64,000 nucleotides of DNA from Candidatus Bathyarchaeota archaeon (GTDB lineage: Archaea; Thermoproteota; Bathyarchaeia; 40CM-2-53-6; RBG-13-38-9). The notes below the pieces were generated by a model that was not told where the DNA came from, searched no databases, and worked only from the letters and a program-made list of their open reading frames with translations. Below are positions 869 to 26,381 of this stretch, piece by piece. Positions within the stretch are counted from its first letter, which is position 1. Each line of letters starts with the position of its first letter. The translations under genes were made by a program, and so were the position numbers. The stretch is taken from contig CAWECG010000003.1 of the NCBI GenBank assembly GCA_963807605.1, positions 32,001-96,000 on the forward strand, in the 5' to 3' direction.

Positions 869-962
869 CCAAAACATCCTTCCTCTTTTTTCGTAACTTC
901 CTAGCATACTTTCTTTTTCACAATCTGCCGGGCGAAGCGAGGCATATCTTTTTTCGTCGTCG
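749..962 (+). repeat. Sorting-tail + 3' UTR module, copy 1 (copy 2 at 22009-22225, minus strand)
   Basis: 8 mismatches in 120 coding nt. Similarity continues through the 3' UTR to a (GTC)n tail. Confidence 0.9.
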
Positions 963-981
963 TATCCCTTGGTGAGCACAC
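955..981 (-). repeat. Array site 1: (CGT)n tail - core TATCCCTTGGTGAG (963-976) - CACAC
   Basis: Read directly. Exact reverse complement of the core at 17787-17800. Confidence 0.9.
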
Positions 982-982
982 C

Positions 983-1411
983 TATGAGAATGGAGAGTCT
1001 GTACCAGTTAAATGGTCTTCCCATGGACTGGGGCATCTGCTCCATGAAAACGAGCAAGAATGGGAGAAAGCTCTGTGGACTAACATTCTACGATACGCAT
1101 TAGGCAAAATTTCCAAAGAGGAATTGCTAGCACCGTATGCAACTGAGTATGCCGTGGCAAAACTAAGTTTGACTAAACCTCACCTTCTCAAGAGAGTCAA
1201 GGCCATAAACAAAGTAACATCAATGACCAAGCGGATCAGGCCCTACAATTTCGTTCTAGCTGGGTCTCCCGCCAGAGTAGACCAAAGAGGCAAACCCATC
1301 ATTCCGCTGACAAATTTCACCAGAGAATATGATCTAGCTCCACATCAAACGTTCGTTGATGCCAGGAGTGGCAAACACTAGACAGAATACACCGAATCAT
1401 ACTGGAGAAGA
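983..1411 (+). pseudogene. C-terminal fragment of casposon-type family B DNA polymerase
   Basis: Translates as YENGESVPVKWSSHGLGHLLH...WEKALW...AVAKLSLTKP...RIRPYNFVLAG. SxHGLGHLL and I(K/R)P(F/Y)NF are motifs I recall from casposon PolB. No start codon, internal TAG. Confidence 0.65.
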
Positions 1412-2250
1412 TGAATAAGGGGTAGGAGGGTGGACAATACGCCTATCCAGAGGTCTTCATCAGGCTCCTAGGCTACATGCGCATGTTCTTCCACCTGCCC
1501 TACCGGCAGACAGAAGGACTCCTGAAAGCACTGAGAAGATTCGACTCAAGGATCAAAGTGCCTGACTAAACTATCGACAGGCGTGTGAACAAGTTGGATG
1601 AAAAAATCTTTGGAGATGACATAGTCCTGGCGGTGGATGCTTCAGGCATCAAGGTAGCTAACCGCGGCGAATGGATGCGCGACAAATGGAAGATCAGACG
1701 CGGATACCTAAAGATCCACATCGCGGTGGATGTGAAGCAGAAGAAGATCCTGGCGCTAGAGGTGACCGATGAAAAAGTGGGAGATGGACAAATGCTCAAG
1801 CCGCTGGTTGAGGAAGCCTCCAAGAAGAGTAAGGTCGCTAAAACAATTGGCGACGGAGCATACGATATGGAAAGCAACTTTCACTACCTCGACGCAAAAG
1901 GGATTGAGTCACGCATCAAGGTGCGGAAGAACACATCCAGCAGAGCCGGAGGATGCACGCCCCGCAAACTCGCAGCCCAAAAATACCTGCAGGACCCGTA
2001 AGCCTGGAAACGCAAGCATGGCTACGGCCAGCGCTGGATGGCTGAAACCGCCTTCTCGTCCTTCAAGCGAACCTTTGGAGAATATGTCTCAGCCAAAACG
2101 ATGCAAAACATGGCGAAGGAAATGATGATCAAAGCCTCACTATACAACATGCTGATAGAAACGACCACAGCAACACAAGGCTAGACGAAACCTGAAGACA
2201 GCCAACAAAAGCGAAAAGCATCACCGAAACCTAGTCGCGCAACACAGCAC
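1402..2250 (+). mobile_element. IS5-family (IS903-like) transposase remnant
   Basis: LPYRQTEG, VDASGIK, RRGYLKIHIAVD, GDGAYD, RWMAETAFSSFKR. Broken by stops/frameshift. Right end GCAACACAGC near 2240-2249. Confidence 0.85.
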
Positions 2251-2306
2251 ACACGACCAAAGTTTTAAATCAATCAATCTGAAATTTCTAGATAGGTGCA
2301 TCTGGT

Positions 2307-2645
2307 TTGGTAAGTCGTTCCATAATAGCGATAGTGGTTGTCATAGTGATAATTGCTGTGGCTGGAGTCTACTATATCTCTAGATCTCCTGCCCCGACTC
2401 CGCAATACTCACCTCCTCAGTCTACGACGCCAACCGTCGCTGCAGACGGTGCAGCATTGTACAAAGACAACTGTGAAGCGTGCCATGGTGCAAAGGGTGT
2501 TGGAGGGAAAGGCCCCGTGCTCACTGCCAGCAATGTAAACAGAAATACAATAGAGAAAGGTAATATCGATAAAGGTATGCCAGCATTTGGGACTACACTC
2601 ACTCCGGATCAGATTACAGCGATACTACAGTACTTGACATCCTGA
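2307..2645 (+). CDS. Membrane-anchored monoheme class I cytochrome c
   Basis: N-terminal TM, CEACH heme motif, distal GMPAF Met ligand. Confidence 0.85.
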   Translation: MVSRSIIAIVVVIVIIAVAGVYYISRSPAPTPQYSPPQSTTPTVAADGAALYKDNCEACHGAKGVGGKGPVLTASNVNRNTIEKGNIDKGMPAFGTTLTPDQITAILQYLTS

Positions 2646-3143
2646 GTAGAAATGGTAAAATCTCAACTCCTGTAGTGTAGGCGTTTTTCCCGGCCTGCGT
2701 CATTATGGCTCGATGATAGGTGATGGTCCAAGGAGCATTCAGTAGAGCCTACGCTGGCTTATGCAGAGCTTGAAGACGTTTCAGAATGTTCCGGTGCCTT
2801 GAAAGTAACTCAAGAACTCCGTCAAGGGCCCTCATCCAGCGAGCGCATCCCTCCAAACTTATCGAATCAAAGTATGTTGCCATTGAGAGGTAAAGGTAGG
2901 CCGAATGAAACTAAATGTTCAACTGTTCATTCAAGGCATCTAAGATTTTCTTGCCAATCATTTTTCTCACACTTTTGTATGTAGACTTCAAGGGGCTGAT
3001 AGCTACTTAATGCTATAGCGTCGACGTTGTGAATAGGTATCCCCTTTTAACAAGAGTCAAAGAATACGGCTTGGAATGTTGTGAACGTCTTCGATCGAAC
3101 TTAATAGGTGCCAGTTCCTAATTGAAATTTAAGTAGGTTTTGT

Positions 3144-3458
3144 ATGCCAATAGATCCAGATTTTGCAAAGAAACTCAAGAAGCATGGCCAGCACAATGGA
3201 CATGATGTTTGGGGCGAAGTGCAACCTCCAGAAAAGCTGGGAATTCACGGCACCAGCGTAGCCGTGGATCATGAAGTTTGTGACGGGGACGCCATCTGCG
3301 TACAGGTCTGCCCGGTTAACGTATACGAAATGATCGATAGCCCAGGACACCCGAAGTCGGACAAGAAATCAGATCCCGTCAGAGAGTCCGACTGCATCTT
3401 TTGCATGGCCTGCGAGATCTCGTGTCCACCCAAGGCAATCAAAATAACCCAGAAATAG
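3144..3458 (+). CDS. zfx: Zinc-containing dicluster ferredoxin
   Basis: N-terminal IDP..H.GH.VWG....KLGIHG extension plus CDGDAICVQVCP and CIFCMACEISCP. Confidence 0.85.
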   Translation: MPIDPDFAKKLKKHGQHNGHDVWGEVQPPEKLGIHGTSVAVDHEVCDGDAICVQVCPVNVYEMIDSPGHPKSDKKSDPVRESDCIFCMACEISCPPKAIKITQK

Positions 3459-3508
3459 AAAACCAGAAATCAACTTCAATCCCCTCGAAAATCTGACAGA
3501 ACCCTCTT

Positions 3509-3700
3509 CTAACTCACCTTTTTCAACCATTTTTTTATTATTCTTCTTATCGTATACTCAGGGATATTTGTTATAATCTGTTGTATGCTCCGAAGGTTGG
3601 CAACCAATTCAGTTCTAAGATATTCTTTAATTTTGATCCCAATTTCTTCATTTGAGATAGGAGATGATGTTTGAGAATATTGAATATAGGTTCTCCTCAT
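3509..3700 (-). CDS. Hypothetical protein (AT-rich)
   Basis: Start overlaps the stop of the upstream ORF (ATGA). Confidence 0.4.
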   Translation of the reverse strand: MRRTYIQYSQTSSPISNEEIGIKIKEYLRTELVANLRSIQQIITNIPEYTIRRIIKKWLKKVS

Positions 3701-3969
3701 TGCCTTCCACCACCATAACTATTATAGAAAAATAAGGCGAATTGTGAGCCGAACTCTCCCACGGTATAGATTTTCACTCCTTCATGTTCACCTACGGCGT
3801 CTCTAATTCTATCTGCAACCTTTCTATCCGCTAAAATCACAAGATATTGTAACCCCTCTGCTGTTGCTTTTTGGACCTGTTCCTCTACCATATTCCTTAA
3901 TTCTTCTAAAGTTGCTTTTTCACTAATGCTGAGACTAATCCCTCCGTCTATTGCTCCCCACCCAGCCAA
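3697..3969 (-). CDS. Hypothetical protein
   Basis: 90-aa ORF with protein-like composition. Confidence 0.5.
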   Translation of the reverse strand: MAGWGAIDGGISLSISEKATLEELRNMVEEQVQKATAEGLQYLVILADRKVADRIRDAVGEHEGVKIYTVGEFGSQFALFFYNSYGGGRQ

Positions 3970-4019
3970 AACTACGTTGGACTTTGTATTGTGTTCAAAA
4001 TTGGTTGTAACCTCAACTC

Positions 4020-4161
4020 ATCCATATCGCCAGTGACAAACCCTTTATTCTGGAAACCACGAACTAGGCAAGAGAAACACCACAAGACTGCATAGAGTCG
4101 GGAATGAAAAGGGAAATGAAAATGTAGGCGGTCGCACCACTCCAGCAATGAATAGATACAA
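4020..4161 (+). repeat. ~142-bp dispersed repeat with a tRNA-Gly-like 3' end (att remnant); copy 2 at 21054-21195, partial copy at 27902-27940
   Basis: Near-identical sequence in both copies; GGCGG(T/C)CGCACCA followed by CTC(C/T)AGCAATGAATAGATAC. Confidence 0.85.
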
Positions 4162-4383
4162 CTGATGGAATCTTTGCGCCACACACAAGAACTAGACAGT
4201 TATTCAGAATCCGCAAAGAGTCGGGTCATATGATGAGGCTAGTTATTAGTACCGTAACCTTTTTCTATGCAGCATAGCGCGCGCGTTTTGGGATACTAGC
4301 ACAATTACATTGTGTAATGGTCGCGCCTAACTTCTGGGAGAAAATAAGGATAAAGAAGGTTGGAAAGCAGGCTAGTGTTGGCT

Positions 4384-5094
4384 TCACATCTCATTGTGGC
4401 TACGCGCGTGTACGAGATATGTCGCAACAGCTAGAATCGCAATCATTACTCCAATAAGCGTAACTAGGCTATTCGTATCCAGAAGCGGTTGAGCAACCAG
4501 TGCTGCTTGAGTAGATGCAGGTGATACAGTCGTTGATGGAACAGTCTGGGTAGTACTCGACGTAGGCGATGAAGAAGGGGCAGTTTGTGGTGGACTAGGT
4601 GAGGCTACGTTTGGAATCCGAGGGCATCCGGAACAGTCCGCGATGATTTTGAAACTATCAAAGCCTACGATGGTATTGCCGGAGAGAACAGGATTAACTA
4701 GGATCACGCAGGTATGAGGTGTGCGAATCACGGACTTAGCGTCATACCAGCTATACACCTTCTCTGTTGAACATTGGTGCAGATATTCAGGAAGACCGTC
4801 GTGATCATCGTCCTCGACGAATCCGCATATCACTGTTGGAGGCGATGATCCTAATGGTGGTTGACCATTTGCTATTCTAATGTGCGCAACAGGAATGATG
4901 CTAGCGATTATCAGGAGGACTATTGGTAGAATCGAACCTTTGCGAGGCATGACCAGTGTCCTTGCTCTTTGCATCGTTATTGAGCTCTTCATAAGCATTT
5001 CCGCCCGCTTGGCATAGGTGCAAATCTGAGGATCATGCGAAAATGCGCTCCTGCGGTAGCTAGAGCAAGCAGAATTCCTAGGGATGATGGCCAT
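4384..5094 (-). CDS. Secreted/membrane-anchored protein with Ser/Thr/Pro linker (true start probably downstream of the annotated one)
   Basis: Hydrophobic signal segment, Cys-containing domain, S/T/P-rich linker, C-terminal TM. Confidence 0.6.
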   Translation of the reverse strand: MAIIPRNSACSSYRRSAFSHDPQICTYAKRAEMLMKSSITMQRARTLVMPRKGSILPIVLLIIASIIPVAHIRIANGQPPLGSSPPTVICGFVEDDDHDGLPEYLHQCSTEKVYSWYDAKSVIRTPHTCVILVNPVLSGNTIVGFDSFKIIADCSGCPRIPNVASPSPPQTAPSSSPTSSTTQTVPSTTVSPASTQAALVAQPLLDTNSLVTLIGVMIAILAVATYLVHARSHNEM

Positions 5095-5124
5095 GCTCGA
5101 TGCTTTTGGCTAGCTTGCTAGCCA

Positions 5125-5586
5125 TCAGCACGCGCGGCTCGATTGAGGTGATGTTGGCGGGTTCTCGCGTCTCCATGAGATGTTTATCGGACCGGCTTGG
5201 CCAGCATGAGTTATTGCTGTGTCACCTGTTACGTTGTCCGCTACGCAGATGTAGAGGAAGAAGTCACCGACCGTGTCAGTGAGTATGGCACCGTCAGGGG
5301 AGTAGTAGTTTCTTTGATCACTTGGCGGAACGTAGAGGCTTCCAGGCAGCAGAAATGCTATGTGGCCCGGAGCATGTCCGCCAAAGTCTTTCGGAGTATG
5401 GAATCTTGGTTGGCCGTTGCCAGCTACATTAGTTGGACTGACTGGAAGGCCGCCTGCGGTCGTCTCTCCAATCTTTCCTGGCAGTTGGTCACCCAATGTG
5501 TAGTGGGCTGCGACCTGCTGTACAGTAGCTAAGGCAGCTAATACAAACATAGTTACGCAGAGCGTTGCGAGTATTTTTGTAATCAT
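5125..5586 (-). pseudogene. Secreted protein, apparently truncated at a CGCGCG junction
   Basis: Signal peptide present. The ORF ends ...SS-RAC* across CGCGCG at 5131-5136. Confidence 0.5.
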
Positions 5587-5821
5587 GTTCTACTTCTCTA
5601 GGCCACTTCAATTCAGTTGTTGAAGGGAATTGGATAGCTGACGTGAGCGCTAACATTAGATGCAAAACTGGTATTTTTAAGATTTAATTCAATCTAGTCG
5701 TATCCAGATTTTTTATGTCTGGCAACGGCCTTGTTTGACCTAGGCAAGGCCAGCGAATCTTTAGGGAGATAGGGAAAAACTAGTTTGACGGCGTCTATGG
5801 CCTGAGAGATCCGGTAGAATT

Positions 5822-7465
5822 CTATGTGGCTACTATCTTGTAAGGTCGCATCATTGAGTTGTCTTCGTGTTCGAGGATGTGGCAGTGCCAGACGTAGTTC
5901 CCACCTGTAGTAGTGGGATTGAAGGTATTATAGGGACCGAATTTTACGATGATGCGTGTTATCGTCTCTGTGTTCGCTCTGACGGTGTCCTTCCAGCCTG
6001 CCTCATTGGGGTCAGGTGGCCCGGCAGGGCCCTCAAAATCAATCTCCTTTTTTCCTTTGTATGTTTCAACATCGTATGGTTGTCTATCGAGAATCTGAAA
6101 TTGTACGGCGTGTAGGTGAATGGGATGTGTGTCTTCTGTGGTGGTTATCAGGCGCCAGATCTCGGTTGCGCCGAGTTTGGGGTTCTCAGTTATCGGATCA
6201 TCCCACATTGAGCCATTGAGTTTCAGTATTACGGAGTTGCCCTGCTTGGATTTATTCTCGTCTAGAGTCAAATCCCTGACTGGCGTTGTTGGGGTCTGAA
6301 CTAAGGGCACGAATGGCATGGTGGCTGGGATAGTGCTGTTGTCTGGTTGTGTAAGCGGTACCACTCTGAACTGCATGACCTCAGGAATCACAAGCTCGAC
6401 TCCATTTGGAAACGGCGCCTTAGCGTCATTTGTCAGGAGTATCTGAGTTCCTGGTGAAACACCTGTAAAGTCGACAATTACGTCAGCCCGTTCTGCTGGA
6501 GAAATCAAGAGCTTCTTCACTTGCACAGACGAGGGCAAGAAACCGCCGTCAGTCCCGATCTGATGGAAGATTTGGCCCGAGTCAAGACTTAACCTGTAGA
6601 AGCGAGAGTTCGAGCCGTTCAAAAAGTGGAATCGGTACTTTCGCGGCTCCACCTCAAGAAACGGCCAAACCTTGCCGTTCACTAGTATGGTATCACCGAA
6701 GAATTCAGGAACCCAGACAGGAGGGGTTTCAGGATCCCCCTGACCTTTAGTCGGGTAGAACAGCGAACCGTCGGTGTTGAAGGTCCGGTCTTGGATAACA
6801 AGCGGGATCTCATACTTCTCTTTTGGAAGGTTAAGCCCATCCTCAACCGCGTCACGGATCAAATAGAAGCCTGCCAGCCCCGAGATAACGTTGAGGCGCG
6901 TTATTCCAATAGCGTGGTCATGATACCAAAGGGTAGAAGCTGGGTTCTCGTTGGGATAGTAATAGGTGCTGGATCCTCCAGGAGGAAACCACGCCTCAGG
7001 ATACCCGTCGCTTGCCGGAGGCGTGAACCCACCGTGCAAGTGGACAACATTGCGGACCTCATGGCCAGTAGTTTCTGCGCCGTGAATCGTATGGTCTATT
7101 GAACTTGCGAGTAAATGTGTGGTGGGCAGGTGACTTATCCATTTCACCTGTATTGGGCTGCCTGTTCGAACTTCGAATGTGGGACCGGGATACGTACCGT
7201 TGTATCCCCACAGTGTTGTTGGTGGAAGCTGACTGTGAAGTTTCTGTGTGAACTGAGTCATTTCCACTTCGTAGTTGGTGCCTCCTGGCTCGGTAGGCTG
7301 CACGACCTTTGGAATAGGCAAGGGATCCACATACTTGGTGAGGGTGCTTGGTTCAAGCGGAGCCGGTGGGTGGAAAGCGTACTTTGATAAGGCCGCACCT
7401 ATGGCGACCGCACCTGCTAGGCCTCCTAGAGCCTTTAAGAATGTTCTTCTCTTCATTCGAAGCAT
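5822..7465 (-). CDS. Tat-exported multicopper oxidase (CotA/bilirubin oxidase-like)
   Basis: KRRTFLK Tat signal; HLHG, WYHDH, HPIHLH and WHCHILEHED copper motifs. Confidence 0.93.
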   Translation of the reverse strand: MLRMKRRTFLKALGGLAGAVAIGAALSKYAFHPPAPLEPSTLTKYVDPLPIPKVVQPTEPGGTNYEVEMTQFTQKLHSQLPPTTLWGYNGTYPGPTFEVRTGSPIQVKWISHLPTTHLLASSIDHTIHGAETTGHEVRNVVHLHGGFTPPASDGYPEAWFPPGGSSTYYYPNENPASTLWYHDHAIGITRLNVISGLAGFYLIRDAVEDGLNLPKEKYEIPLVIQDRTFNTDGSLFYPTKGQGDPETPPVWVPEFFGDTILVNGKVWPFLEVEPRKYRFHFLNGSNSRFYRLSLDSGQIFHQIGTDGGFLPSSVQVKKLLISPAERADVIVDFTGVSPGTQILLTNDAKAPFPNGVELVIPEVMQFRVVPLTQPDNSTIPATMPFVPLVQTPTTPVRDLTLDENKSKQGNSVILKLNGSMWDDPITENPKLGATEIWRLITTTEDTHPIHLHAVQFQILDRQPYDVETYKGKKEIDFEGPAGPPDPNEAGWKDTVRANTETITRIIVKFGPYNTFNPTTTGGNYVWHCHILEHEDNSMMRPYKIVAT

Positions 7466-7609
7466 CTTGACGACCTTCGGTTAAACATGCCAAATGCTGG
7501 AAAGTCAGGATTCATATTAAATACACGCGTTGTTAAGCAAATCGCTTCCTACAAGGGCTCGTACGAGCGTGCTTGACCGTGTTCCGTGAGATAAGCGCGC
7601 GCTGGCCTG

Positions 7610-7685
7610 ACTTACACGTGTAATTTACACGTCGATTTCCAGACTTACACGATCCAGCTATAACGCCGTTATTCCCTATATCCCC
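7610..7685 (+). mobile_element. Casposon-like terminus remnant A1 (CACGT iterons ... CCTATATCCCC)
   Basis: About 85-90% identical by eye to 9310-9383 and 17710-17786. Abuts the core at 7686-7699. Confidence 0.7.
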
Positions 7686-7824
<139 letters not shown>

Positions 7825-9039: not shown

Positions 9040-9309
9040 ATGTTCATCTCAGTTTATTTTGTGTTCAAAGCTCGATAAAACCATGTTGTTCCTCATCGAG
9101 AAGGTTATTCCAAAGAACCCTTTTCTTACACACTATTTAGCAACATCCTGTATTTGTTGGACGCAGGGTATCACAGACTATTTAGGGAGTTTTCAGAATT
9201 TAGCCCACTTCGCCACCAAATCTAACCCAAATAGTGGCCCCGGAAGTCAAGCTGAATCATATTTCTTTCCAAGAAAACAGACTAACATGCATTTGGGATA
9301 CTAGCACAA

Positions 9310-9400
9310 TTACACGTGATATTTACACGTCGAATTTCAGACTTCCACGATCCAGCCATAACCCCGTTATTACCTATATCCCCATCACCGAGGGGCACAC
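9310..9400 (+). mobile_element. Casposon-like terminus A2 + array site 3 (core ATCACCGAGGGGCA, 9384-9397)
   Basis: GTTATTACCTATATCCCC directly followed by a core 11/14 identical to consensus. Confidence 0.7.
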
Positions 9401-10298: not shown

Positions 10299-10329
10299 GT
10301 GTGTGCTCACCAGCTATGGCGACGACGAC
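10299..10329 (+). repeat. Array site 4: GTGTGTG - CTCACCAGCTATGG - CGACGACGAC
   Basis: Read directly. Confidence 0.9.
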
Positions 10330-10417: not shown

Positions 10418-11026
10418 ATGGCAAACCCAACAGACGGAAAATTGAACTTGCTGACTGATAAGAACAGCGTTTTGATATTAGTTGACTATCAACCTTCGAT
10501 GTTCAAGAGCGTTAGTTCGGGGGACAAAACAATAATTAAGAAGGCGACAATTTGTGCAGCAAAAGCCGCAAGCATCCTAGGAGTTCCTGTCGTTTTGTCG
10601 TCAATTAATCCTAAATCTCTAGGGGAGTTTATTCCAGAAATCACTAAATTGTTTCCAGAGCAGGAAGTATTTGCACGAAAGATACCGAGTTTTGATGCTT
10701 TTGAAGATGAGAGAACCTGGAGTGCTGTCAAGAAATCAGGGAGAAAGAAATTAGTTATTTCAGGATTGTGGACAAGTATGTGCTTTGCGTACACCGCTCT
10801 TCATGCTTTGAAAGAAGGGTACGAAGTTTATGGATTAATTGATGCTGCTGGTGATTCTACACTTGATGCGCATAGATACGGCGTCGAGAGAATGTTACAG
10901 GCTGGAGTAATTCCAATTACTGTAGAGTCATTGGTGTCGGAATGGATGCACGACTGGGGAAATCCAAAAGCAGGCGAGCTTGTTAAAGAAGTTTATTCGA
11001 AGTATGGCGCAATGATTGGACTGTAA
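10418..11026 (+). CDS. Isochorismatase-family hydrolase (YcaC-like)
   Basis: LVDYQP, GLWTSMC, EGYEVY..DA.G. Confidence 0.88.
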   Translation: MANPTDGKLNLLTDKNSVLILVDYQPSMFKSVSSGDKTIIKKATICAAKAASILGVPVVLSSINPKSLGEFIPEITKLFPEQEVFARKIPSFDAFEDERTWSAVKKSGRKKLVISGLWTSMCFAYTALHALKEGYEVYGLIDAAGDSTLDAHRYGVERMLQAGVIPITVESLVSEWMHDWGNPKAGELVKEVYSKYGAMIGL

Positions 11027-11106: not shown

Positions 11107-11307
11107 TGTGTGTGCGCACGATCTCTTGGTGCGAGCATCCAAATTTGGACTAGTATGTGTGTGTGCCATAGTTGGTGAGGAGCATCTGAAATTGAACTGT
11201 TAGAGCAGGATTTTTGTGTGTGTGCTCACCAAGGGATGCACACACACACAAAATCAATACCAAGCGGTTCAATTCTAGATGCTCTCACCAGCTAAGGCAC
11301 ACACACA
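11107..11307. repeat. Compact mini-array: four cores (11120, 11166, 11225, 11284) with 32/45/45-bp inserts
   Basis: Read directly. Each insert has a (CA)n end and an AGCATC..AATT(T)G(A/G)AC end. Confidence 0.85.
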
Positions 11308-11747
11308 AATCATAATCTAATGGCTCGCTACCCTCGCCAAAGCATCAAGAGCTTGATAACCTCCGGCTTCAGCAGTTTTATTTCGATACGAGTTGGCGCG
11401 AATCAGTCGCAGAAAGTTCCTGGCTTCAGGAGCCGTATGTGCGGCAGCTTTCGGTTCAGGTTACACATGGAGGGACAAGCTGTCCTCGCTGACAGAGATG
11501 TTTCATGACCATACTGATAATGTGGATGAATCACCGTAATCTATTCAATTACATCAGGCGAATTGACAGGAGGTTCATACTCTTCAATGGCCTCTTGCTT
11601 TTGTTCGTCACTGTGATTCCATTTCCACATCCCTCGTGGCAGAGCATATACTGAGCAATGATGCCAATATTCTTCACCCTAACGATCAAAGAATCATAAG
11701 AACAGCGGTAACTTCTTGCGTATTCTTCAGTAATACATCAAAGGGTA

Positions 11748-12356: not shown

Positions 12357-12643
12357 GAACCTGCCTTGGCAAGGATCCCGCGTCTTCAGTTTGGAATTAG
12401 GTGCGTTATCCGTAATCTACCTGAAGTCTTACGTAATTTGGTTTTACGAATTCCAGTTTTCAAAACGAAGAGAGATGTACTTGAGTTTCCTTTGGTCGGA
12501 TTCTGCCTTGGGAAAGAATCCTAATTATCAATTTCACGCTTCAATAAACCAATATGAACCGATGAAACTTCAGAGATCTCTTGAAGAGGCCAGATACCCC
12601 CCTTCTGATAAGCTAATTAAGATCACTACAAAAATGATGATAT

Positions 12644-15021: not shown

Positions 15022-15101
15022 TCTTTTTTCGAGTATACCAAGACAATCACTACTGCAAGGGATTTCATAAGATATTGTAAACAACTCATTGGGAGTTATA
15101 G

Positions 15102-15938
15102 ATGAGAGCAAATGAAATAATTGAAATGGCTCTGAATGAAGATCGTTGCGATGAAGATATTACTACTAACGCTCTAATCCCTGAAGGTTCTAAGACGAAA
15201 GGAGCTATTTATGCAGAAGAAAGCGGTGTAATTGCAGGTTTAGAGGCAGCACGAGACGTCTTCCGCTATGATGACTCAGACGTGACCTTCACGCCTCTGG
15301 TAAGAGACGGTGACTATGTTCGCTCTGGTCAAAGACTTGCTGAAGTTGAAGGTGATGCTAGAGTAATTTTGTCACGCGAAAGAGTTGCGCTAAACTTTCT
15401 CCAGCATCTCTCTGGCATAGCTACTGCTACAAACAGATATGTGAAGAAAGCTGGGAAAACCATAATCTTAGACACTAGAAAAACAACCCCAGGGTTGCGT
15501 GAATTGGAGAAGTATGCGGTGAGAATAGGGGGCGGATATAACCATCGATTGAGTCTAGCTGAGATGGGTATGATCAAGGATAACCATATTGCATTTATTG
15601 GAAGTATCAAAAAAGCGGTGAAGCTTGTCAGAGGGTACTCACACAAGAAGATTGTGGTAGAAACTAAAACGATTAATGAAGTACTGGAGGCAGTAGAAGC
15701 CAAACCTGACAGGATAATGTTAGATAATATGTCCCTTAAAGAAATGAAAAAGGCCATAGAGATCATACGCTCAGCCAATACCAGGATAGAGATAGAGGTC
15801 TCCGGAGGCGTTACATTAGAGAATATTGCGGAGATCGCAAAGCTCGAACCCGACTATGCCTCCTGTGGAGCGTTGACCCATTCAGTTAAGGCATTAGAAA
15901 TGAGTTTAGAGCTAGACCAAACTATTGCCAACCGTTAA
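15102..15938 (+). CDS. nadC: Quinolinate phosphoribosyltransferase
   Basis: ERVALN, DTRKTTPG, KDNH, MLDN. Confidence 0.95.
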   Translation: MRANEIIEMALNEDRCDEDITTNALIPEGSKTKGAIYAEESGVIAGLEAARDVFRYDDSDVTFTPLVRDGDYVRSGQRLAEVEGDARVILSRERVALNFLQHLSGIATATNRYVKKAGKTIILDTRKTTPGLRELEKYAVRIGGGYNHRLSLAEMGMIKDNHIAFIGSIKKAVKLVRGYSHKKIVVETKTINEVLEAVEAKPDRIMLDNMSLKEMKKAIEIIRSANTRIEIEVSGGVTLENIAEIAKLEPDYASCGALTHSVKALEMSLELDQTIANR

Positions 15939-16446
15939 AACATTCTGACGAACCTAAATTCTGTCTTCAGAAGAATCACAATGATACGTAGGTTGTGACC
16001 CCTGAGCCGCCCACCAGAACTGATTGGACGGGAGTTACATCTCTCCATAGCGCGATGGTATGGGAAGTGTTTTTGCAGAGGAGGCGCTCATGCTATCCTA
16101 TTGGCGCCTGCGTTTATGGGTTGGATCTGAATGACTCAATTCATGCAACAATCTTGAGGTAGTTGATAGAAAGAAGATTATTGACGAATGGATAATTATG
16201 TTATTGTCAGGCCTAGACCAGCGATCCTTCTTATGCAAAAGCGTTCCGGCCATACTAAAGAGGTGACTAAATTGAAAAAACCGACTCCAATTCGAATGAG
16301 AAAAATCCTGACAATGACCTCTCTCAGGACCAACTTAGACTTCTTGATCAAGCAATCGATGATCAAAACGACAAATGCACTTCTCGATCGTCAATCATTC
16401 GGAGTCTAATTGATGAGTACCTTCCAAAGCCCAGGAGCAAATAAAA

Positions 16447-16678
16447 TTGAGTATCTCAACTCCGGAGCTATCTAAAACCCAGATAGGGATCATCGGCGAA
16501 TACTCTCTGGACCAAGCAATCAAAGAACTGTTCGAGCAATATCCAGGACTCGAATATCAAAGCCACTTAGACGGATCCCTGCAGGATAAAAGAATCGACG
16601 GACTAGTCCTTTTAGACAACAAATCCGTTGAACTTGAAATTGCAAATTGCTCTACTCACTACGCGATCTTTCTTCCAT
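16447..16678 (+). pseudogene. Truncated hypothetical (possibly PD-(D/E)xK-like) gene
   Basis: RIDGLV..ELEI; the frame runs into transposase sequence at GCGCG (16679). Confidence 0.35.
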
Positions 16679-17070
16679 GCGCGGCCCCCAGTACTCCAGC
16701 GAAGCCTTCAGGAACGAGGCAAGACGCCTAGGCGTAGAACCAGTTCATACCATACCCTAGAAACCAGATGAAGGGCAAACAGGTTCTACGAATCGACCGG
16801 AAGTTCCGCTCACACGGACCTGCCCGTCTGGAGCAAATGATCCGACACAGAACTGCAGTAGAGAGTCACATCTCGACTCAAAGAACACTATGGACTACGA
16901 CAGCTTCGAACACGCGGCCTAAGAAACGTCTACACACACGTAATCCTATGCTTGAATGCTATGCTGGCCACCGCTCTATCTGCGATCAAACATGGAAGCA
17001 TCCATAAGATGCGGTCACCAATCCAGTTCACAAAATTGACAGGTAAGACATAATATTGCAAGAGGCTAGC
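16679..17070 (+). mobile_element. DDE transposase C-terminal remnant (IS5/IS4-like)
   Basis: QYSSEAFR..LGVEPV-IPYP..RTAVE across frameshifts; bounded by short GCGCG runs. Confidence 0.55.
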
Positions 17071-17154
17071 GCGTTCTATCAGTAGACTTTTTCTACGACA
17101 GCTGATAAAATGCAGAGACCTGCACCCAGGATGATAATTCTGAACAGAAAATTC

Positions 17155-17598
17155 TCAACTGCCAACAGCAATCCGACCCAAGCAAGAAAGAAACCAGCCC
17201 ACCCAATTACATGAAATATCCACTTTCCCAACTGTATGATTACCCCACCACTTTTCTATCGGTGCAAGTTTGACTCCCAGGTCTTCCCTTAAGGCTCTGA
17301 TCAATCTCTCCCTCCGCGCCTTATCCTTTATGATCTGATCAATAACAGCATCCACATCCTTCGAGGATGCAGAGTTAAGAATCATCCCGCAGCTGCTGCA
17401 GTAGACCGCTACAGGCGCATTCTCAGTCTGGCAGCCTGGACACATCTGAATCATGACTATAGGCCTAAGAACCTCCTCCTCCTTCCTCTTGAGGCCGTGA
17501 AGAACCAAGTCCTTATCATCAACATTCTGCATCGTCAAGTGGGTGTAGACCCTGACGATATCCGGTCTACGCCAGCCGAATAACTTCATCAATTCTCG
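17155..17598 (-). pseudogene. Tyrosine integrase C-terminal fragment with zinc ribbon
   Basis: ELMKLFGW...VYTHL (catalytic W/Y region) and CPGC..YCSSCG. Confidence 0.75.
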
Positions 17599-17709
17599 AC
17601 ATATGTGATGCCACTGCGTACTCGAGATTGATTATAGACGAAGCGCCTGAGGCATTAGAAGCTTTGCATTTTACGAAAGCTGGGAGAGCGTTAGTGTGCG
17701 CTAGGGCAG

Positions 17710-17831
17710 ATTTCCACGTGGCAATTTACACGTCGATTTTCAGACTTCCACGATCCAGCCATAACACCGTTATTACCTATATCCCCCTCACCAAGGGATA
17801 CGACGACGATATCCCTTGGTGAGCACACACA
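17710..17831. mobile_element. Casposon-like terminus A3 + inverted core pair (17787-17800 / 17810-17823) around CGACGACGA, then (CA)4
   Basis: Read directly; the two cores form a perfect 14-bp inverted repeat. Confidence 0.8.
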
Positions 17832-18033
17832 ATATTTAATCCTTTTAGGGGAAGAATCCCCTAAAACCCTCTTGCTTGAAGTATTGGTGTATCACCAAGG
17901 ATGATTCACTTGGACTGGCGGCGCACACTAGATGGGATAAAGTCTTGGCGAGGTAACTTTAAGATTCTAGTCTCCGCTTCAATAAGTGTATTACTCTAGC
18001 GATTGCCTCAGCTTTTGTTGGAAGTGAGATTGA

Positions 18034-18363
18034 ATGGAGAAAGAAAACATGAATGGAATACTCAGGCTTAAAGAGGAAATTGATCAAACCTCAGATGAGC
18101 TTAGAAGAGAAGCAAGCCGCATAAAGGGAGACGTAATTGCTGTAAGAAATGATCCTAAGGTACAGAAGATTTGGAATAAGCTATGTCGGCTTCACATGAA
18201 AGCAATGGTAATTTGTGAATTTGATTCTAAGAATGTAAGTGGGCTGGAGAAAGTCTGTGAGGGAATTTTGCATCCCACTGCATGCATAGAAACGCTTCAT
18301 CTATCAGAAGAAGAAACTTGCTGCGGAAGATTCTTGAAAAGAATTGAAGCAGAAAAAGGGTAG
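18034..18363 (+). CDS. Hypothetical protein
   Basis: 109-aa ORF between array sites. Confidence 0.55.
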   Translation: MEKENMNGILRLKEEIDQTSDELRREASRIKGDVIAVRNDPKVQKIWNKLCRLHMKAMVICEFDSKNVSGLEKVCEGILHPTACIETLHLSEEETCCGRFLKRIEAEKG

Positions 18364-18490
18364 CTGAATGCCCTGAGCCAAGGGATTCCTAGCGAAAGGA
18401 CATTTTCAGTCAATTTTCTTGCGCTGGAGCGGTTGTTAGAGGGCTCCTCTCCTAATAAATAGGAGCAGGGGGGCGTAGGAGACTCTTCTT

Positions 18491-18526
18491 GTGTGTGTCC
18501 CTTGGTGAGAGCACTCTAATTTGAAC
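18491..18526 (-). repeat. Array site: GTGTG - TGTCCCTTGGTGAG - AGCACTCTAATTTGAAC
   Basis: Read directly. Confidence 0.85.
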
Positions 18527-18794
18527 CCATGAAGGTCTCCACCACAGGAAGTGAGTCCCATGCCAGAAATGATGTGTTAAACCTCAAGCTTCCCTCACTT
18601 ATTCAGTCACTGTCTCACATGGTTCTCGCTATTATAAGCAGTGGTGGCGAAATCTGAAGTCGACATGGACGGATGCTACGCTTGGATTTGTTAAATCCCG
18701 AAAATGTTACAAAGACAAGAATCCCTACTGTAACGTTACAGCACCCAAGCATGCAAAGAACTGATACAAAAGACACTAACCCACTAGAATTGAA

Positions 18795-19431: not shown

Positions 19432-19815
19432 CCAGCAGTATCTCCTAGCCTTTGATTGTTGAAGAGTTTAGGTAGATATGTCGCATAGGTTTTGAAACAA
19501 GCTTTCTACTAGCTCAAGAAGGTTGTACTTTGCACTTTCGCGCTTAGAAATCCTGATCATGAGTACTTCTTCCCGAAATAGGTTTCCCTGATCGTCAAAT
19601 TTTTCCAGTTTACTTTAGTCGGAGTGCGCTAGCGATGTTGATGGTTAAAGATGTGATACATGTCTTCTTATGGCCTAAAAAAATCAGCATTTAAACAATC
19701 CGGGACAACACGACTGCACTGGGTCCCAGCTCCTCGCGGGGGGCCGGTTTTGATAACGTATGTAACGCTGTTTTCGATCTCTGCGACGCGCCCTAGAATC
19801 ACTTCATTCTAGAAA

Positions 19816-19970
19816 TGTCCATGTGGATGTCCACGTCGGAAAACCAGCATCCACGTGACCACACCAAACAGCCAGTTATCTATATCCCCCTCACCAGCTA
19901 ATGCACACACACAAAAATTAACCTGCTCTAACGGTGCAAATTACGATGCTCACCAACTGGAGCACAGACA
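19816..19970 (+). mobile_element. Casposon-like terminus A4 + two direct cores (19890-19903, 19949-19962) with a 45-bp insert
   Basis: CCACGT iterons and TATATCCCC; the insert is homologous to 11180-11224 (reverse complement). Confidence 0.75.
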
Positions 19971-20507: not shown

Positions 20508-20782
20508 AAATAATCCTGCATTCGGCTGTGCACCAAGAAAATAGAGTTCACCAAATTTCACGCTGTAGTCATGGGGCGTTCTAGAAACTGTTATTTTCTT
20601 AAAAGGTTCTATTGCTGTTTCCTTGATGTCAGTGTATGTACCCAGTAGGGCCTCAAGGAACTGATGCAGCTCTGAATCGCTCAGAACGGACAGGATAGAA
20701 CCTACGTGAGAGCATATTGCCTTTATGATACCTGTTTTCCTGCTCTGGGCAGGGAGCTTTGCTTGCTCTGTCAGTTGCTCCT

Positions 20783-20893
20783 CATGACGTGCAAGATGTC
20801 CTTCGTTCTAGGATATTCTATGGTGGCTTTGAAGTGTCTTAGACTCTTGAAGCTGATCTTTTGTATTCTAGGGTTTTGCATCTTCTCTGCTAT
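20783..20893 (-). pseudogene. Tyrosine integrase internal fragment
   Basis: IAEKMQNPRIQKISFKSLRHFKATIEY..TKDILHVM (LRH motif). Confidence 0.7.
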
Positions 20894-21050
20894 CTTCTCT
20901 GACCAAGTCCGGAACAGGTTTGTCAAAATCGATTTGTTTTGTTTTTCCGAGAATGAAAATCGCCAGTTCCTGAGTTTTCAACATTATCATGCTATCCCAC
21001 CGATAGTATTTGTTTCGGTGTAATACAGGAGAATTGAAGGAAAACCTCAG
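20883..21050 (-). pseudogene. cas1: Casposase (Cas1-solo) C-terminal fragment
   Basis: LRFSFNSPVLHRNKYYRWDSMIMLKTQELAIFILGKTKQIDFDKPVPDLVREDS resembles the casposase pattern W..(I/V)..K..ELA.(Y/F)(I/L).GK...(L/I)DF..P...R.D (from memory). Not in the ORF track. Confidence 0.7.
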
Positions 21051-21286: not shown

Positions 21287-21309
21287 GCGCGCGCTGGTGA
21301 GCACACACA
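21287..21309 (-). repeat. Array site truncated by a (GC)4 run: GCGCGCG-CTGGTGAG-CACACACA
   Basis: Read directly. Confidence 0.75.
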
Positions 21310-21986: not shown

Positions 21987-22020
21987 GTGTGTGTGCCTTG
22001 CTGGTGAGCGACGACGACGA
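21987..22020 (-). repeat. Array site: (GT)n - CCTTGCTGGTGAG - (CGA)4
   Basis: Read directly. Confidence 0.9.
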
Positions 22021-22105
22021 AAAAAGATGTGCCTCGCTTCGCTTGGCAGATAATGAAAAGGAAAGTATGCAAGGAAGTTATGAAGAAAGGGAAAGACTGT
22101 TTTGG

Positions 22106-22606
22106 TTAGTCTCTTCTTCTCTTAACCACTACAACCGCGGATAATGCAGCGACTAGTCCTGCTAAGGTTAGGTAGGGTGTTAGAATCTCAAGCTTGTTAG
22201 TTGGTAGGGTGACTCCGCCCACAGGAAAAGTGACTGCATGGAGAATAATGTAATAGTTTTCTCCATTCAGATTGATGCCAAATGGACCCGGAGGGCCGAC
22301 CTGGCCGTAAACTTCGACTAGGTCTCCAACCTGAACATCAGCATAGCCCTGTTGTGGAAATGGAGGACTTACAACAAAGCCAACCTGAACGGTGCTGCCG
22401 ACCGTGAGGCTTCCTGAGCTATCAGAGATTATCTCAAGAATCTGGACATCCCACCAATGTGAACCGATGAGAATCCCCTGATTGGTGACCAAACCTCTGA
22501 TCTTAGCCTCTGTACCGTTAGCGGTAACTACAGGAATTATCGTACTCATAGCGGAGAGAACTAGCAGCATCATTACCGGTGCAAGAACTGAATAATTCTT
22601 ATTCAA
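22106..22606 (-). CDS. Secreted beta-rich protein with PVGG..NKLE-TM-KRRRD tail
   Basis: Signal peptide; tail near-identical to the gene at 1-868. Confidence 0.8.
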   Translation of the reverse strand: MNKNYSVLAPVMMLLVLSAMSTIIPVVTANGTEAKIRGLVTNQGILIGSHWWDVQILEIISDSSGSLTVGSTVQVGFVVSPPFPQQGYADVQVGDLVEVYGQVGPPGPFGINLNGENYYIILHAVTFPVGGVTLPTNKLEILTPYLTLAGLVAALSAVVVVKRRRD

Positions 22607-23783: not shown

Positions 23784-24003
23784 GTGTGTGTGCTCACCAG
23801 CTAGGGCAAACACACTAAACGAATGTCTCGCTCTCGGCTCGCCCTGAAGATTCAGGGGATTCTTCCCCTGACATGAACAGGAGGGATTCATGAACAGGAT
23901 AGGGATGGATTGTGTGTGGGTCTTTTGGTGAGGGGGATATAACATAACGCAGAGTTTTTGGTGTCCACGTGGCTATGCCTGATTGGACGTGGAAGTCCAC
24001 GTG
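23784..24003. mobile_element. Two array sites (23793-23806, 23919-23932) with a 112-bp insert, then casposon-like terminus A5 (GGGGATATA at 23933, opposite orientation)
   Basis: Read directly; CCACGTG iterons at 23965-24003. Confidence 0.75.
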
Positions 24004-24197
24004 ATACTGGCTGATGTGTTGTTTCTGATGTTGTGTTTTTTTTGTTTCTGTTTATGTCTTCTTGTTTTGTTTATTGTTTTTTGTTTCACAAAACGTTTTT
24101 CATTATGAAAAAAAGAGTAGGCAGATAAAAACACAAAAAAGTTCTATAATCTGGCCTAGTAAAGACGGAGAAGTCTTGTCCTGCAAGACGATGCTCT

Positions 24198-24779
24198 TCA
24201 CGAATGCAAACGCTTCAACACCGTTGGAAATCTCTTCTGGAGGATTATGAGGGCGACGACGGAGACGAGGAGGTTTGCGGGAACGGACAGAGTGAGTATG
24301 GGATAGGTCCATGCGCTGAACGCTACCGCAAAGTAGCTAAGGAAACCAGCATTCCTACCCAGACTCTGCAGCGCCGCCAATTGGACTGTTGGCATTCCTA
24401 ACGTGAGCTGTGTCGCCACGAAAAGCGCGACCATAGCGGAGCTGAATATGAAGCGTGAAAGCTGGCCTCCAATCACAGCATACACGGCCTTCATCTGCTT
24501 GGAGAGGCGATATGCGAACACCGCCATTATCGCATCACCAAGGCCAGATGGAAACTCAACGTACCATGCACCCGTCCAGGCTGAGGCGGCGATCCCCTTG
24601 ATGATCCCCACTATCGGACCGACCGGCCATGGGCAGAGCACCGCAGCTAATACTACAGCTGTCGATCCAAGGTTTGGGTTTCCGAAAGGTGTCAGAAATA
24701 GCACGCGAGTCAAGCCTATGGCGATGAGACCGAAGATCACAGAACATGTTAACACATTGTAGGTTCGCAATCTGGTCAA
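24198..24779 (-). CDS. ECF transporter S-component-like membrane protein
   Basis: GNPNLGST..GPIVGIIKG; 5-6 TMs. Confidence 0.6.
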   Translation of the reverse strand: MTRLRTYNVLTCSVIFGLIAIGLTRVLFLTPFGNPNLGSTAVVLAAVLCPWPVGPIVGIIKGIAASAWTGAWYVEFPSGLGDAIMAVFAYRLSKQMKAVYAVIGGQLSRFIFSSAMVALFVATQLTLGMPTVQLAALQSLGRNAGFLSYFAVAFSAWTYPILTLSVPANLLVSVVALIILQKRFPTVLKRLHS

Positions 24780-24952
24780 CCTACGTGCATAACCGTTTCG
24801 ACCTTATTCTTTAGCTTTACGATTAGAGTGGGGAATCGATGCAATGATTATGTTGTAGCTTGGCGTTTCGAAGAGCGCCAAAAAAGGGGTAATTCAAAGA
24901 ACAATAGCTACATCAGATGGTTTTGCTTCAGGTTATTCGGGTAAGTAAGCCT

Positions 24953-25543
24953 TCAGATGGTGGGCTTTTGGGATTGTGCAAGGAAAAGGAAGATCACAAG
25001 TCCAATGGTGATTGCGGTGATCATTGGAACTGCAATTTGCTCAACAGCGTTCAGGGCCTGAGAGAATGGTTGTGCTAAGAGAAGAATCAAAGCCATGGCC
25101 CCAGATTCAAAGCAAAAAGCAAGAACGGCTCCTTTAAGCAAGTATGCTTTTCCCGCAATCTTGTTTGAAACTAATCCCGCTATGACACCTGCAAGAATGG
25201 TAGAAATTGAGCAGGGAAGAGCAGTGAAGCCGCCTACTGAGTATCTGTGAATACCCCCAATTAAGCCTGCCAATAATCCAGAAACCGGCCCCCCAATGAG
25301 TCCAGCCATAAGAGGCGCCAGCTCTCTAACGTTCAATATTGCGCCACCTACCACAGAACCCATCAACGTTGCATAGATAGCTAGTATTCCGAAAACAACG
25401 GAGATCAATATCTCTTCTTTCATCCAGTTCTCCCCTCTTATGGGCTTGATGATGCCCATCTTAAAGAGAAGAAGTGCAACAACAATCACAAAAGACGCAG
25501 TTCCCAAAAGAGATAAGATGCCCCAAATAATACTTTCAAACAC
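24953..25543 (-). CDS. Stand-alone LytS/YhcK-type 5TM receptor domain protein
   Basis: ILNVR...AGLIGGP..G..AGLIGGIHR..GGFTA.C. Confidence 0.8.
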   Translation of the reverse strand: MFESIIWGILSLLGTASFVIVVALLLFKMGIIKPIRGENWMKEEILISVVFGILAIYATLMGSVVGGAILNVRELAPLMAGLIGGPVSGLLAGLIGGIHRYSVGGFTALPCSISTILAGVIAGLVSNKIAGKAYLLKGAVLAFCFESGAMALILLLAQPFSQALNAVEQIAVPMITAITIGLVIFLFLAQSQKPTI

Positions 25544-25785
25544 TTAGAACCACTCCTCATAGCGTAATCTCAAGATCTTCGCCAGTCTAACTACTTAACA
25601 TTATATAAAGACAATACAATTAACTCGTGGCCCGAAAGATCCAATGTGCCTCCAAGGCTTGTTTCAATTCAGCGCGCACGCGACAGAGCCCTCGGGGTCC
25701 TAATAGCACTCATTATATCTTGGCTTGATCATCTACTTACCTGTCTACGTCCACGAATCTTCAGAGGCAACCGGGTAAGGAACCA

Positions 25786-26130
25786 GTGAGTACATCACAC
25801 CCGCTCCTATTGCCAGAAAAGAGCGAGATTCACTGTCCAAGCTGCGGGGCAGTCAACCAAGAAACATGGACCTTCTGCCACGTTTGCGGTAAGAACCTCA
25901 AATCTGCCCAGCTGACCAAAGAAGAACTCCTACGAAGCGCAGTGAAAGCACTAGACCAAGGAGAGAAGGAACTCGCAAAGAGATTCATGGACCAAGCAGA
26001 ATCCCTGCTGGAACCACCTAAGCCTAAGCCATCAGAAAAAGAAACCAAAACGCCGACCTGTATTTCTTGTGGAGCCCAAATGCCTGCCCTTGCGACATTC
26101 TGCCCTGTCTGTGGAACTAAACAGCCCTAG
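25786..26130 (+). CDS. Double zinc-ribbon protein
   Basis: CPSCG..FCHVCG and CISCG..FCPVCG. Confidence 0.7.
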   Translation: MSTSHPLLLPEKSEIHCPSCGAVNQETWTFCHVCGKNLKSAQLTKEELLRSAVKALDQGEKELAKRFMDQAESLLEPPKPKPSEKETKTPTCISCGAQMPALATFCPVCGTKQP

Positions 26131-26306
26131 CCAATCATAGACAGCTAGCTGGAGATATTTGCATGCAATCTCGATTGATGGGCGGTTATGATCGAAACCC
26201 AACAATAGCTCAACGATGCTTATCCGGAAGATCTATTCCCTTGGTAACAAACTCCATTTGGATCATGACAGTATCAATTCACTTCTAGCGCGCGCGTTCT
26301 AGCGCG

Positions 26307-26381
26307 CTAGTGAGGACACCCAAAATCCCATTATTAGATTCTGTATGTGTGCGTCGTCGTGTCCTTGGTGAGCACACACAC
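26307..26381 (-). repeat. Last array sites: degenerate core (26307-26314), 45-bp insert ending in GTGTG-CGTCGTCG, core TGTCCTTGGTGAG (26360-26372), (CA)4C
   Basis: Read directly. Confidence 0.75.

Follow-up and report, generated by a model that had tools for sequence, protein, structure and literature searches.

A probable casposon landing pad, filled by repeated integration, in a Bathyarchaeota genome

We analysed a stretch of 64,000 nucleotides from the genome of a Candidatus Bathyarchaeota archaeon (GenBank assembly GCA_963807605.1, hereafter G000; 2.65 Mb, 5 contigs, 47% G+C). This stretch, positions 32001–96000 of contig CAWECG010000003.1 (C3), is referred to below as the window, and coordinates without a contig prefix are window positions. 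Its first 27 kb contain many copies of a 14-bp core, which behaves as a target-site duplication (TSD) made by a casposase, the Cas1 integrase of casposons. We consider it likely that the core is a TSD of the family 2 type and that C3:31560–58372 is a landing pad filled by repeated integrations. The 27-kb stretch reads as a stack of whole, broken and enzyme-less casposon copies carrying ordinary genes; that it captures genes actively is a conjecture. The evidence lies in the architecture of the target, the duplications, the homology of the element ends, relics of casposon genes, and the clustering and intergenic position of the cores.

The core consists of CTCACCA followed by seven variable bases. 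A listing of CTCACCA with its flanks, together with a flank-aware scan, gave 18 cores in the window, spanning 963–26372. An earlier note, made from the DNA letters alone, had reported a repeated 13–14-bp core of two subtypes; this was confirmed, the strict patterns (up to one mismatch) having 6 and 5 matches in the window as compared with 0.04 expected from shuffles. Strict cores of subtype A start at 963, 7686, 11225, 17787, 17810 and 18496, and those of subtype B at 10306, 11166, 11284, 19890 and 23793. The variant cores at 11120, 19949, 21288, 21995, 23919 and 26359 (C[T/G]CACCA) and the degenerate one at 9384 (ATCACCG) retain their flanking end types. Downstream of 26372 the listing contains only bare CTCACCA heptamers without tails, in agreement with the report that no tailed copy follows 26.4 kb. 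Inserts range from 9 bp (17801–17809) to 6709 bp (977–7685), as had also been claimed. One more core, together with the leader described below, lies 440 bp to the left of the window (C3:31560–31589), so that about 19 cores occur within 27 kb.

The genome as a whole contains about 120 flank-validated cores, and CTCACCAGCTA ranks fourth among its most frequent 11-mers. The genome-wide scan that had been proposed as a check found the cores unevenly distributed: the variance-to-mean ratio was 4.4 per 20-kb bin, 52% of the cores fell in 10 of the 134 bins, and only 2 of the 120 lay inside open frames of at least 200 codons, though such frames make up 68% of the genome.

On their CTCACCA side, and on that side only, cores may be flanked by a leader (..GGTTCAAAT-N4-GATGCT). 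The consensus over 45 leader-bearing sites is CTAACGGTTCAAAT-N-GATGCT, followed by the border, CTCACCA and the seven variable bases. Across the genome, TCAA[AT]T, 9 nt and CTCACCA occur 39 times at exactly this spacing, and almost never at any other. The A. boonei family 2 casposase requires TCAAATC 8 bp upstream of the TSD plus the first TSD bases; it sets its far-side cut by distance alone and needs only a 3′-terminal TCCCC on the element (PMC6614799). The TSDs of M. mazei casposons are 14 bp long, with the first 4 nt alone fixed (PMC4779613), and family 2 casposons have TCCCC-3′ ends and 14–15-bp TSDs (PMC6614799, PMC4779613). The leader spacing found here matches these target requirements, which supports the reading of the core as a casposase TSD.

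CTCACCA and its upstream leader appear to mimic the T-loop, 3′ acceptor strand, discriminator base and CCA of a tRNA; the T-stem of this tRNA-like leader is unpaired. More than 40 leader-bearing copies of the site occur in the genome. ARAGORN and Rfam searches revealed no tRNA gene or Rfam family in the window, and none of the 9 ARAGORN tRNAs and 25 hand-pattern 3′ ends found genome-wide ends in CTCACCA. Judged by its sequence, the landing site is a tRNA-like pseudo-site, not a tRNA gene. The idea that CTCACCA is a tRNA-type 3′ end is supported as a resemblance. The companion idea, that the two subtypes came from two tRNA loci, fails: both are dispersed through the genome in dozens of copies, and neither has a matching tRNA 3′ end among those found. 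Four of the 45 leader-bearing cores are empty.

A single full-length Cas1 is encoded in the genome (P0001, 402 aa, C3:803495–804700). It matched the M. mazei casposase 6OPM at 5.7e-72 over its whole length and the best Cas1 of the clustered regularly interspaced short palindromic repeats (CRISPR) systems at only 4e-25; the alignment with 6OPM extends to residue 407 of 431 and includes the helix-turn-helix (HTH) region at the C-terminus. All three Cas1 matches in the genome are casposase-like, the other two being fragments (C3:1057683–1058336 and C1:340629–340964). P0001 lies in an 8980-bp element (C3:796434–805413) with a (CGA)n tip at each end and a leader upstream. The two cores on either side of this element are identical and belong to a rare variant (..GCTAAAG), and an adjoining (CA)n-tipped element of 4 kb shares the middle core. 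Another assembly, G038, contains a 9.4-kb (CA)n-tipped element (L025:5154–14559) with identical flanking 14-mers and a casposase 67% identical to P0001. Complete casposons on two metagenome contigs (L116:803–17598 and L117:2088–15547) have GGGGATATAG.. terminal inverted repeats (TIRs), identical 14-bp TSDs and the same leader; their genes encode Cas1, a protein of about 275–280 aa (faint HEAT hits, L116 only) and a family B DNA polymerase (PolB) of about 850 aa. In all, four Cas1-bearing elements lie between identical direct 14-mers, and three window units between pairs that agree at 13 of 14 positions. Together with the leader spacing and the TCCCC-3′ TIRs, these duplications support the proposal that the core is a casposase duplication.

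Of the cas1/PolB locus that had been called for, this genome has a full-length Cas1 gene within a TSD-flanked element. PolB was not found in the Cas1 elements of G000 or G038, the PF00136 matches of G000 lying elsewhere. Moreover, P0001 reads GFLPD (Pro236, CCT) where 6OPM and all six compared relatives read GFLH; in the two relatives examined at the codon level, the catalytic His is encoded by CAT or CAC, and Pro236 may reflect a single-base assembly error. With the catalytic His lost, the stack is probably inactive, or frozen, in this genome, unless the sequence is in error or an enzyme acts in trans. Among the five casposases with known element ends, those of G000 and G038 share 67% identity and those of G013, L116 and L117 53–78%, as against 44–48% between the groups. 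The former group has simple-repeat tips and no PolB; the latter has TCCCC ends, with PolB seen in L116 and L117. A split into two casposase clades by end type and PolB is a lead from these five sequences. A conserved module flanking cas1 was considered and rejected, since the flanking open reading frames (ORFs) of three genomes align at only 16–25% identity.

The ends abutting the window cores are of the types that had been listed: TATATCCCC; AGCATC..AATTGAAC, which is the reversed GGTTCAAAT leader; (CA)n; and (CGA)n. Depending on the strand, the flanks read (GT)n or (CA)n, (TCG)n or (CGA)n, and ..TATATCCCC or GGGGATATA.., and (CCA)n tips occur elsewhere in the genome. Both TIRs of the L116 and L117 casposons can be aligned with five TCCCC-3′ ends of the window; the first 9 nt of this alignment are invariant and the mean column identity is 71%. 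About 14 such ends exist genome-wide. No intact TIR pair of this type was found in G000, and the sequences inward of the 14 ends mostly show no relation to one another. The (CA)n, (CGA)n and (CCA)n tips bound the polymerase-less casposase clade and many Cas1-less cargo units, and presumably serve as casposase substrates. A subterminal GCTCGCTACGCTCGC motif, not found in L116 or L117, is frequent in the simple-repeat-tipped elements, 20 of its 31 copies lying no more than 120 bp from a core. Four mini-units of about 32–45 bp (within 11134–11283 and 19904–19948) each consist of a tip, about 12 nt and a leader. Besides the window tip at 7700–7822, another long CA run lies at C1:520645–520712; tip length is evidently unstable, probably through slippage.

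The order in which these parts follow one another is compatible with stacking: an element tip comes after 41 of the 45 leader-bearing cores. Tips stand on both sides of 43 cores, and 22 have a tip on the upstream side but are without a recognised end type on the downstream side. Identical copies of rare core variants lie within 20 kb of each other in 9 of 50 pairs, as compared with 2.7 expected (p ~0.005).

We propose the following course of events. A casposase would dock on the tRNA-3′-end-like leader (CTAACGGTTCAAAT, then 9 nt ending in GATGCT) and cut at the leader/CTCACCA border and again 14 bp downstream regardless of sequence, so that the first half of the core is fixed and the second half free. 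The landing pad, comprising window positions 1–26372 and the 440 bp upstream, would have received three kinds of element. Canonical Cas1- and PolB-encoding casposons, with GGGGATATAG.. TIRs ending in TCCCC-3′, would be represented in the window only by five orphan TIRs and by single relics of PolB and Cas1. A second kind would have (CA)n, (CGA)n or (CCA)n tips, such as also bound polymerase-less Cas1 elements in this lineage. The third would be Cas1-less derivatives of these two with one or a few ordinary genes, plus mini-units of about 45 bp made of tip and leader. Some elements would bring their own leader and core near one tip and, by inserting in either orientation, seed new landing sites, which may account for the mixed orientation of the cores and for the more than 100 copies per genome. 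Reversed sub-arrays would arise from elements inserting either way, as is known for M. mazei, and later rearrangement is conceivable. The order of the integrations is a conjecture, and copies with one true TIR and one pseudo-end presumably integrated as such. The features of the window are as follows.

963–976, minus strand: core 1 (CTCACCAAGGGATA), between a (TCG)n tip to the left and a CACAC tip to the right.
977–7685, minus strand: truncated casposon of 6.7 kb with one canonical TCCCC TIR (7599–7685) and a CACAC pseudo-end; its direct flanking cores are alike at 13 of 14 positions, and its cargo comprises cytochrome c, ferredoxin, a multicopper oxidase and a dead insertion sequence (IS).
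983–1414, plus strand: PolB C-terminal relic, beginning about 6 bp past the CACAC tip (5 nt) beside core 1.
1402–2273, plus strand: degraded IS (DDE_Tnp_1) within segment 977–7685.
7686–7699, minus strand: core 2 (CTCACCAAGGGACA).
7700–7822, plus strand: (CA)~61 tip of the following segment, an expanded simple-repeat end.
9304–9383, plus strand: orphan casposon TIR ending in TATATCCCC.
9384–9397, plus strand: core 3, degenerate (ATCACCGAGGGGCA).
10306–10319, plus strand: core 4 (CTCACCAGCTATGG); a (CGA)3 tip comes next, then an isochorismatase cassette (10418–11026).
11120–11297: micro-array of cores 5–8 (11120 minus, 11166 minus, 11225 plus, 11284 plus) with mini-units of 32, 45 and 45 bp.
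11225–17800, plus strand: composite unit, flanking cores alike at 13 of 14 positions (AGGGATG and AGGGATA).
17787–17823: cores 9 (plus) and 10 (minus), identical and inverted, with a 9-bp spacer (CGACGACGA).
17824–18495, minus strand: clean Cas1-less mini-casposon of 672 bp with (CA)n tips at both ends.
18496–18532, minus strand: core 11 and leader (GGGTTCAAAT..GTGCT), an occupied landing site.
19799–19889, plus strand: orphan casposon TIR ending in TATATCCCC, a subtype of about 14 copies genome-wide.
19890–19962, plus strand: core 12, 45-bp mini-unit, core 13.
20868–21050, minus strand: casposase (Cas1) C-terminal relic of 56 aa.
21288–21301, minus strand: core 14, with a (GC)n run as its variable half.
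21995–22008, minus strand: core 15, between a (TG)n tip to the left and a (CGA)n tip to the right.
23793–23932: core 16 (plus), a 112-bp solo end module with CA/TG tips, core 17 (minus).
23933–24010, plus strand: orphan casposon TIR (GGGGATATAAC..), its body to the right, with cargo including a 5TMR-LYT membrane protein and a zinc-ribbon protein.
26359–26372, minus strand: core 18, the last of the window and the right border of the island.

The Cas1 and PolB fragments that the earlier note had pointed out were recovered as relics. The Cas1 relic is 46% identical to residues 300–355 of P0001 (E 1e-16) and 53–55% identical to casposases of the TCCCC/PolB clade. The PolB relic shares 77% aa identity with an ORF of another assembly (G001:C202), whose full-length relatives (about 860 aa; PF03175/PF00136) adjoin Cas1 within TSD-flanked casposons; Pfam and PDB searches with the relic and its longer G001 homologue were negative, and the assignment as PolB comes from the full-length relatives only. 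Further PolB C-terminal relics lie in G000 at C3:796313–796420 and C2:55837–55932, each starting at a (CA)n tip beside a core and at about the same residue. Such repeated starts at a (CA)n tip imply that the truncated gene end is now the subterminal sequence of an element family.

In the micro-array, a (CA)n tip and a 23-nt leader, with about 12 nt between them, make up each mini-unit. The composite unit consists of a mini-unit, the internal core 8, a 6.5-kb body and a TCCCC TIR (17698–17786), the body containing an EamA fragment, nadA-nadB-nadC (12644–15938) and repeats; the same layout of TSD, mini-unit, core, body and TSD is seen in the G038 Cas1 element. The clean mini-casposon contains one 109-aa ORF (18034–18363) and a leader, and its flanking cores 10 and 11 are alike at 13 of 14 positions. 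The remaining window segments encode isochorismatase, SHOCT, zinc-ribbon and membrane proteins.

Same-genus and same-family genomes match window positions 1–27 kb only in scattered pieces on different contigs, which reach 89–94% identity in places; synteny resumes from about 30 kb, where the genes are about 70% identical. Nine of 15 family relatives have the leader-plus-core pattern in many copies, and genomes of other families have few or none; its occurrence largely coincides with that of casposase hits. The reversed pattern, used as a control, gave at most one hit per genome; the relatives are not independent, and hence no test was applied. Metagenomes, of which only peat and sediment samples matched (at most 18% of sampled words; contigs of 150–470 bp at 2–10x depth), contain contigs in which the modules are combined differently, the joints falling exactly at core edges. 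No nadA was found in 10 relatives of the same family; the closest homologue is in another Bathyarchaeia metagenome-assembled genome (MAG; 81% aa identity), and the next closest outside Bathyarchaeia are in methanogens. We had considered that the nadABC operon travels with these element ends; with the closest locus coreless, this idea is without support.

Repeated integration is the best-supported account of the stack, and the casposase-built array of the earlier note largely stands in the light of the TSDs, TIRs, relics and end order. It is not a simple array with one leader, and several observations weigh against our reading. Neighbouring core pairs are inverted in 47 of 88 cases, and direct neighbours are alike within one mismatch in the variable half in only 16 of 41, against 25% by chance. 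For the three common core variants no local pairing emerges: 26 pairs were counted, as many as expected. There are also several segments whose two ends lie on the same side of two inverted cores, a layout that no single canonical integration can produce. The arrangement of core, 8–10 bp of (CGA)n or (CA)n and inverted core recurs at five or more loci besides 17787–17823. That GTGTG-3′ or TCGTCG-3′ ends serve a casposase is a supposition, and the only full-length casposase of the genome is the one without its catalytic His. The nadABC homologue locus of the other Bathyarchaeia MAG, on a 7-kb contig, has no cores; the metagenome joints at core edges involve repeated modules and may stem from other loci; and none of the available strains was close enough to reveal cassette gain or loss at cores.

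Some of these points are what one would expect if only a few sites were seeded by casposons and the mosaic arose mainly by homologous or illegitimate recombination at cores, (CA)n and (GC)n, the borders being recombination joints. Inverted cores and mixed end pairs are frequent, the common variants are unpaired locally, metagenome contigs join modules in differing combinations right at core edges, and (GC)n runs of at least 8 nt are enriched by cores (23 within 200 bp, 4.9 expected), so that the run looks like a second, separate junction motif. Segment 9385–10032, 98% identical to C1:518464–519110, whose start is an intact core, stops at such a run rather than at a core. We nevertheless regard this explanation as very unlikely: the direct duplications around matching-ended elements, four of them with Cas1 inside, are exact over 14 bp, the leader spacing is exact at 39 sites, the tip-core-tip junctions are base-precise, and a 14-bp core with 7 conserved nucleotides is short for efficient homologous recombination. 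We give hardly any credence to att sites of a tyrosine recombinase at tRNA-like sequences, or to assembly chimeras at repeats. The sites do resemble tRNA 3′ ends, and a 68-aa frame on the minus strand (20771–20977), which overlaps the Cas1 relic, contains a tyrosine-recombinase-like SLRHFKAT peptide. That peptide has no Pfam support, integrase domains were not found in the window ORFs or in the 9-kb Cas1 element, and the elements have TIRs and a fixed 14-bp duplication rather than att repeats of variable length. Against chimeras, independent assemblies (G001, G002, G003, G013, G038, JGI and ENA contigs) contain junctions of these same types.

A different view of the same integrations is that the casposase, or a domesticated descendant, serves a dedicated, host-beneficial platform that files gene-sized DNA at self-propagating sites in an integron-like or proto-CRISPR manner, the units being arbitrary DNA capped or selected by short simple-repeat tails rather than the debris of selfish elements. 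The cargo of ordinary metabolic and membrane genes, with a nadA missing from the relatives searched, speaks for it, as does the filling of 41 of 45 landing sites. The (CA)n tip cuts the PolB family at about residue 80 (window 977) and at about residue 215 (C3:796419 and C2:55932), which implies that tips can cap arbitrary break points, and five terminal nucleotides suffice in vitro (PMC6614799). We consider such a platform rather unlikely, as the array shows no sign of being selected for and has neither a shared promoter nor leader-side polarity, and the cores lie in both orientations; many ends come from inherited multi-copy families in which a subterminal motif is conserved, as in transposon lineages, the region is rich in relics and truncated genes and contains a dead IS, and the casposase is inactivated in G000. 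It is possible, if doubtful, that a polymerase-less Bathyarchaeia casposase lineage stores gene-sized DNA, with simple-repeat tips or pseudo-ends as caps, in landing sites propagated by the inserts themselves. If so, a Cas1 integrase building integron-like cassette arrays would be a living analogue of the step from casposons to CRISPR.

Returning to the stack as the product of repeated casposon integration, its closest counterparts are the family 2 casposons (AciBoo-C1 of A. boonei; M. mazei; 6OPM). Shared with these are a Cas1 integrase with a C-terminal HTH, a 14–15-bp TSD of which the leader-proximal bases alone are fixed, TCAAAT(C/T) 8 bp upstream of the cut, TCCCC-3′ TIRs, a target resembling a tRNA 3′ end and, in the metagenomic relatives, the trio of Cas1, HEAT-repeat protein and PolB. 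The present system differs in that its target is a non-tRNA pseudo-site numbering over 40 leader-bearing copies, with about 120 cores per genome, in that a sister casposase clade resides in polymerase-less, simple-repeat-tipped elements, and in that most units have no Cas1. Tandem casposons of Methanosarcina re-use their target, share a TSD between elements, leave solo-TIRs through decay and insert in either orientation (PMC4779613). Those cases involve two elements per site and three sites per genome, whereas about 19 cores in 27 kb and many islands are present here, the units measure 9 bp to 6.7 kb, and some elements bring their own landing sites. The enzyme-less units resemble miniature inverted-repeat transposable elements (MITEs) in being short, having the ends of autonomous elements and being mobilised in trans, and the pile-up at a preferred site resembles Tn7-type islands; unlike both, the integrase is Cas1 and not a DDE enzyme, and many units contain intact cargo genes. 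As in integrons and CRISPR arrays, a short repeat bounds variable units beside a leader-like recognition site. Unlike integrons, there is no IntI, attI, attC or common promoter (no integrase domain was found in the scanned window ORFs), and the borders are a 14-bp core plus tips in mixed orientation. Unlike CRISPR arrays, spacings run from 9 bp to 6.7 kb, the 'spacers' are gene-sized, leaders are many, the repeats are of mixed orientation, and there is no Cas2, effector gene or crRNA-type repeat.

The enzyme, the target logic, the TSD and the TCCCC TIRs are already known from family 2 casposons, and tandem pairs and solo-TIRs have been published (PMC4779613). In the searchable literature, the polymerase-less simple-repeat-tipped Cas1 elements, the Cas1-less cargo units and a target present in more than 100 copies are apparently new: reviews hold that a polymerase is invariably present in casposons (PMC6452270), and our searches of that literature found no description of non-autonomous casposons or of casposon-type arrays in Bathyarchaeota. 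Casposons have been described as rare, always polymerase-encoding and confined to 1–3 target sites per genome. In this genome a single target exceeds 100 copies, element ends of another kind are used at that target by a polymerase-less casposase clade, and units with ordinary genes but no Cas1 stack between the duplicated targets. Repeats made by Cas1 beside a leader and separating foreign DNA are the configuration proposed for the origin of CRISPR arrays, in which a TSD becomes the repeat (PMC6452270), and this could now be tested with natural sequences. Much of the accessory-genome mosaic in this widespread, uncultured class of archaea would likewise be accounted for by such stacking.

Other repeats were noted in passing. 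Alternating GC runs of at least 8 nt number 320 in the genome, and TAGCGCGCGCT is its third most frequent 11-mer. In the window such runs lie at 4277, 7595, 10033, 21200, 21287, 21971 and 26288, with 16 more up to 54673; the 98%-identical paralogous segment mentioned above stops at the run at 10033. An abundant repeat of about 31 nt (C4:662678–663428, 13 copies found, 60 bp apart) was rejected as a CRISPR array, being a 60-bp tandem that is probably coding. The degraded IS at 1402–2273 has eight further copies in the genome, each about 85% identical to that of the window. Finally, 22011–22225 is an inverted, 90%-identical copy of 749–963; both belong to an end family that joins a (CGA)n tip to the 3′ end of surface-protein genes with a C-terminal anchor-like signal, and further copies occur on contigs C1 and C4.

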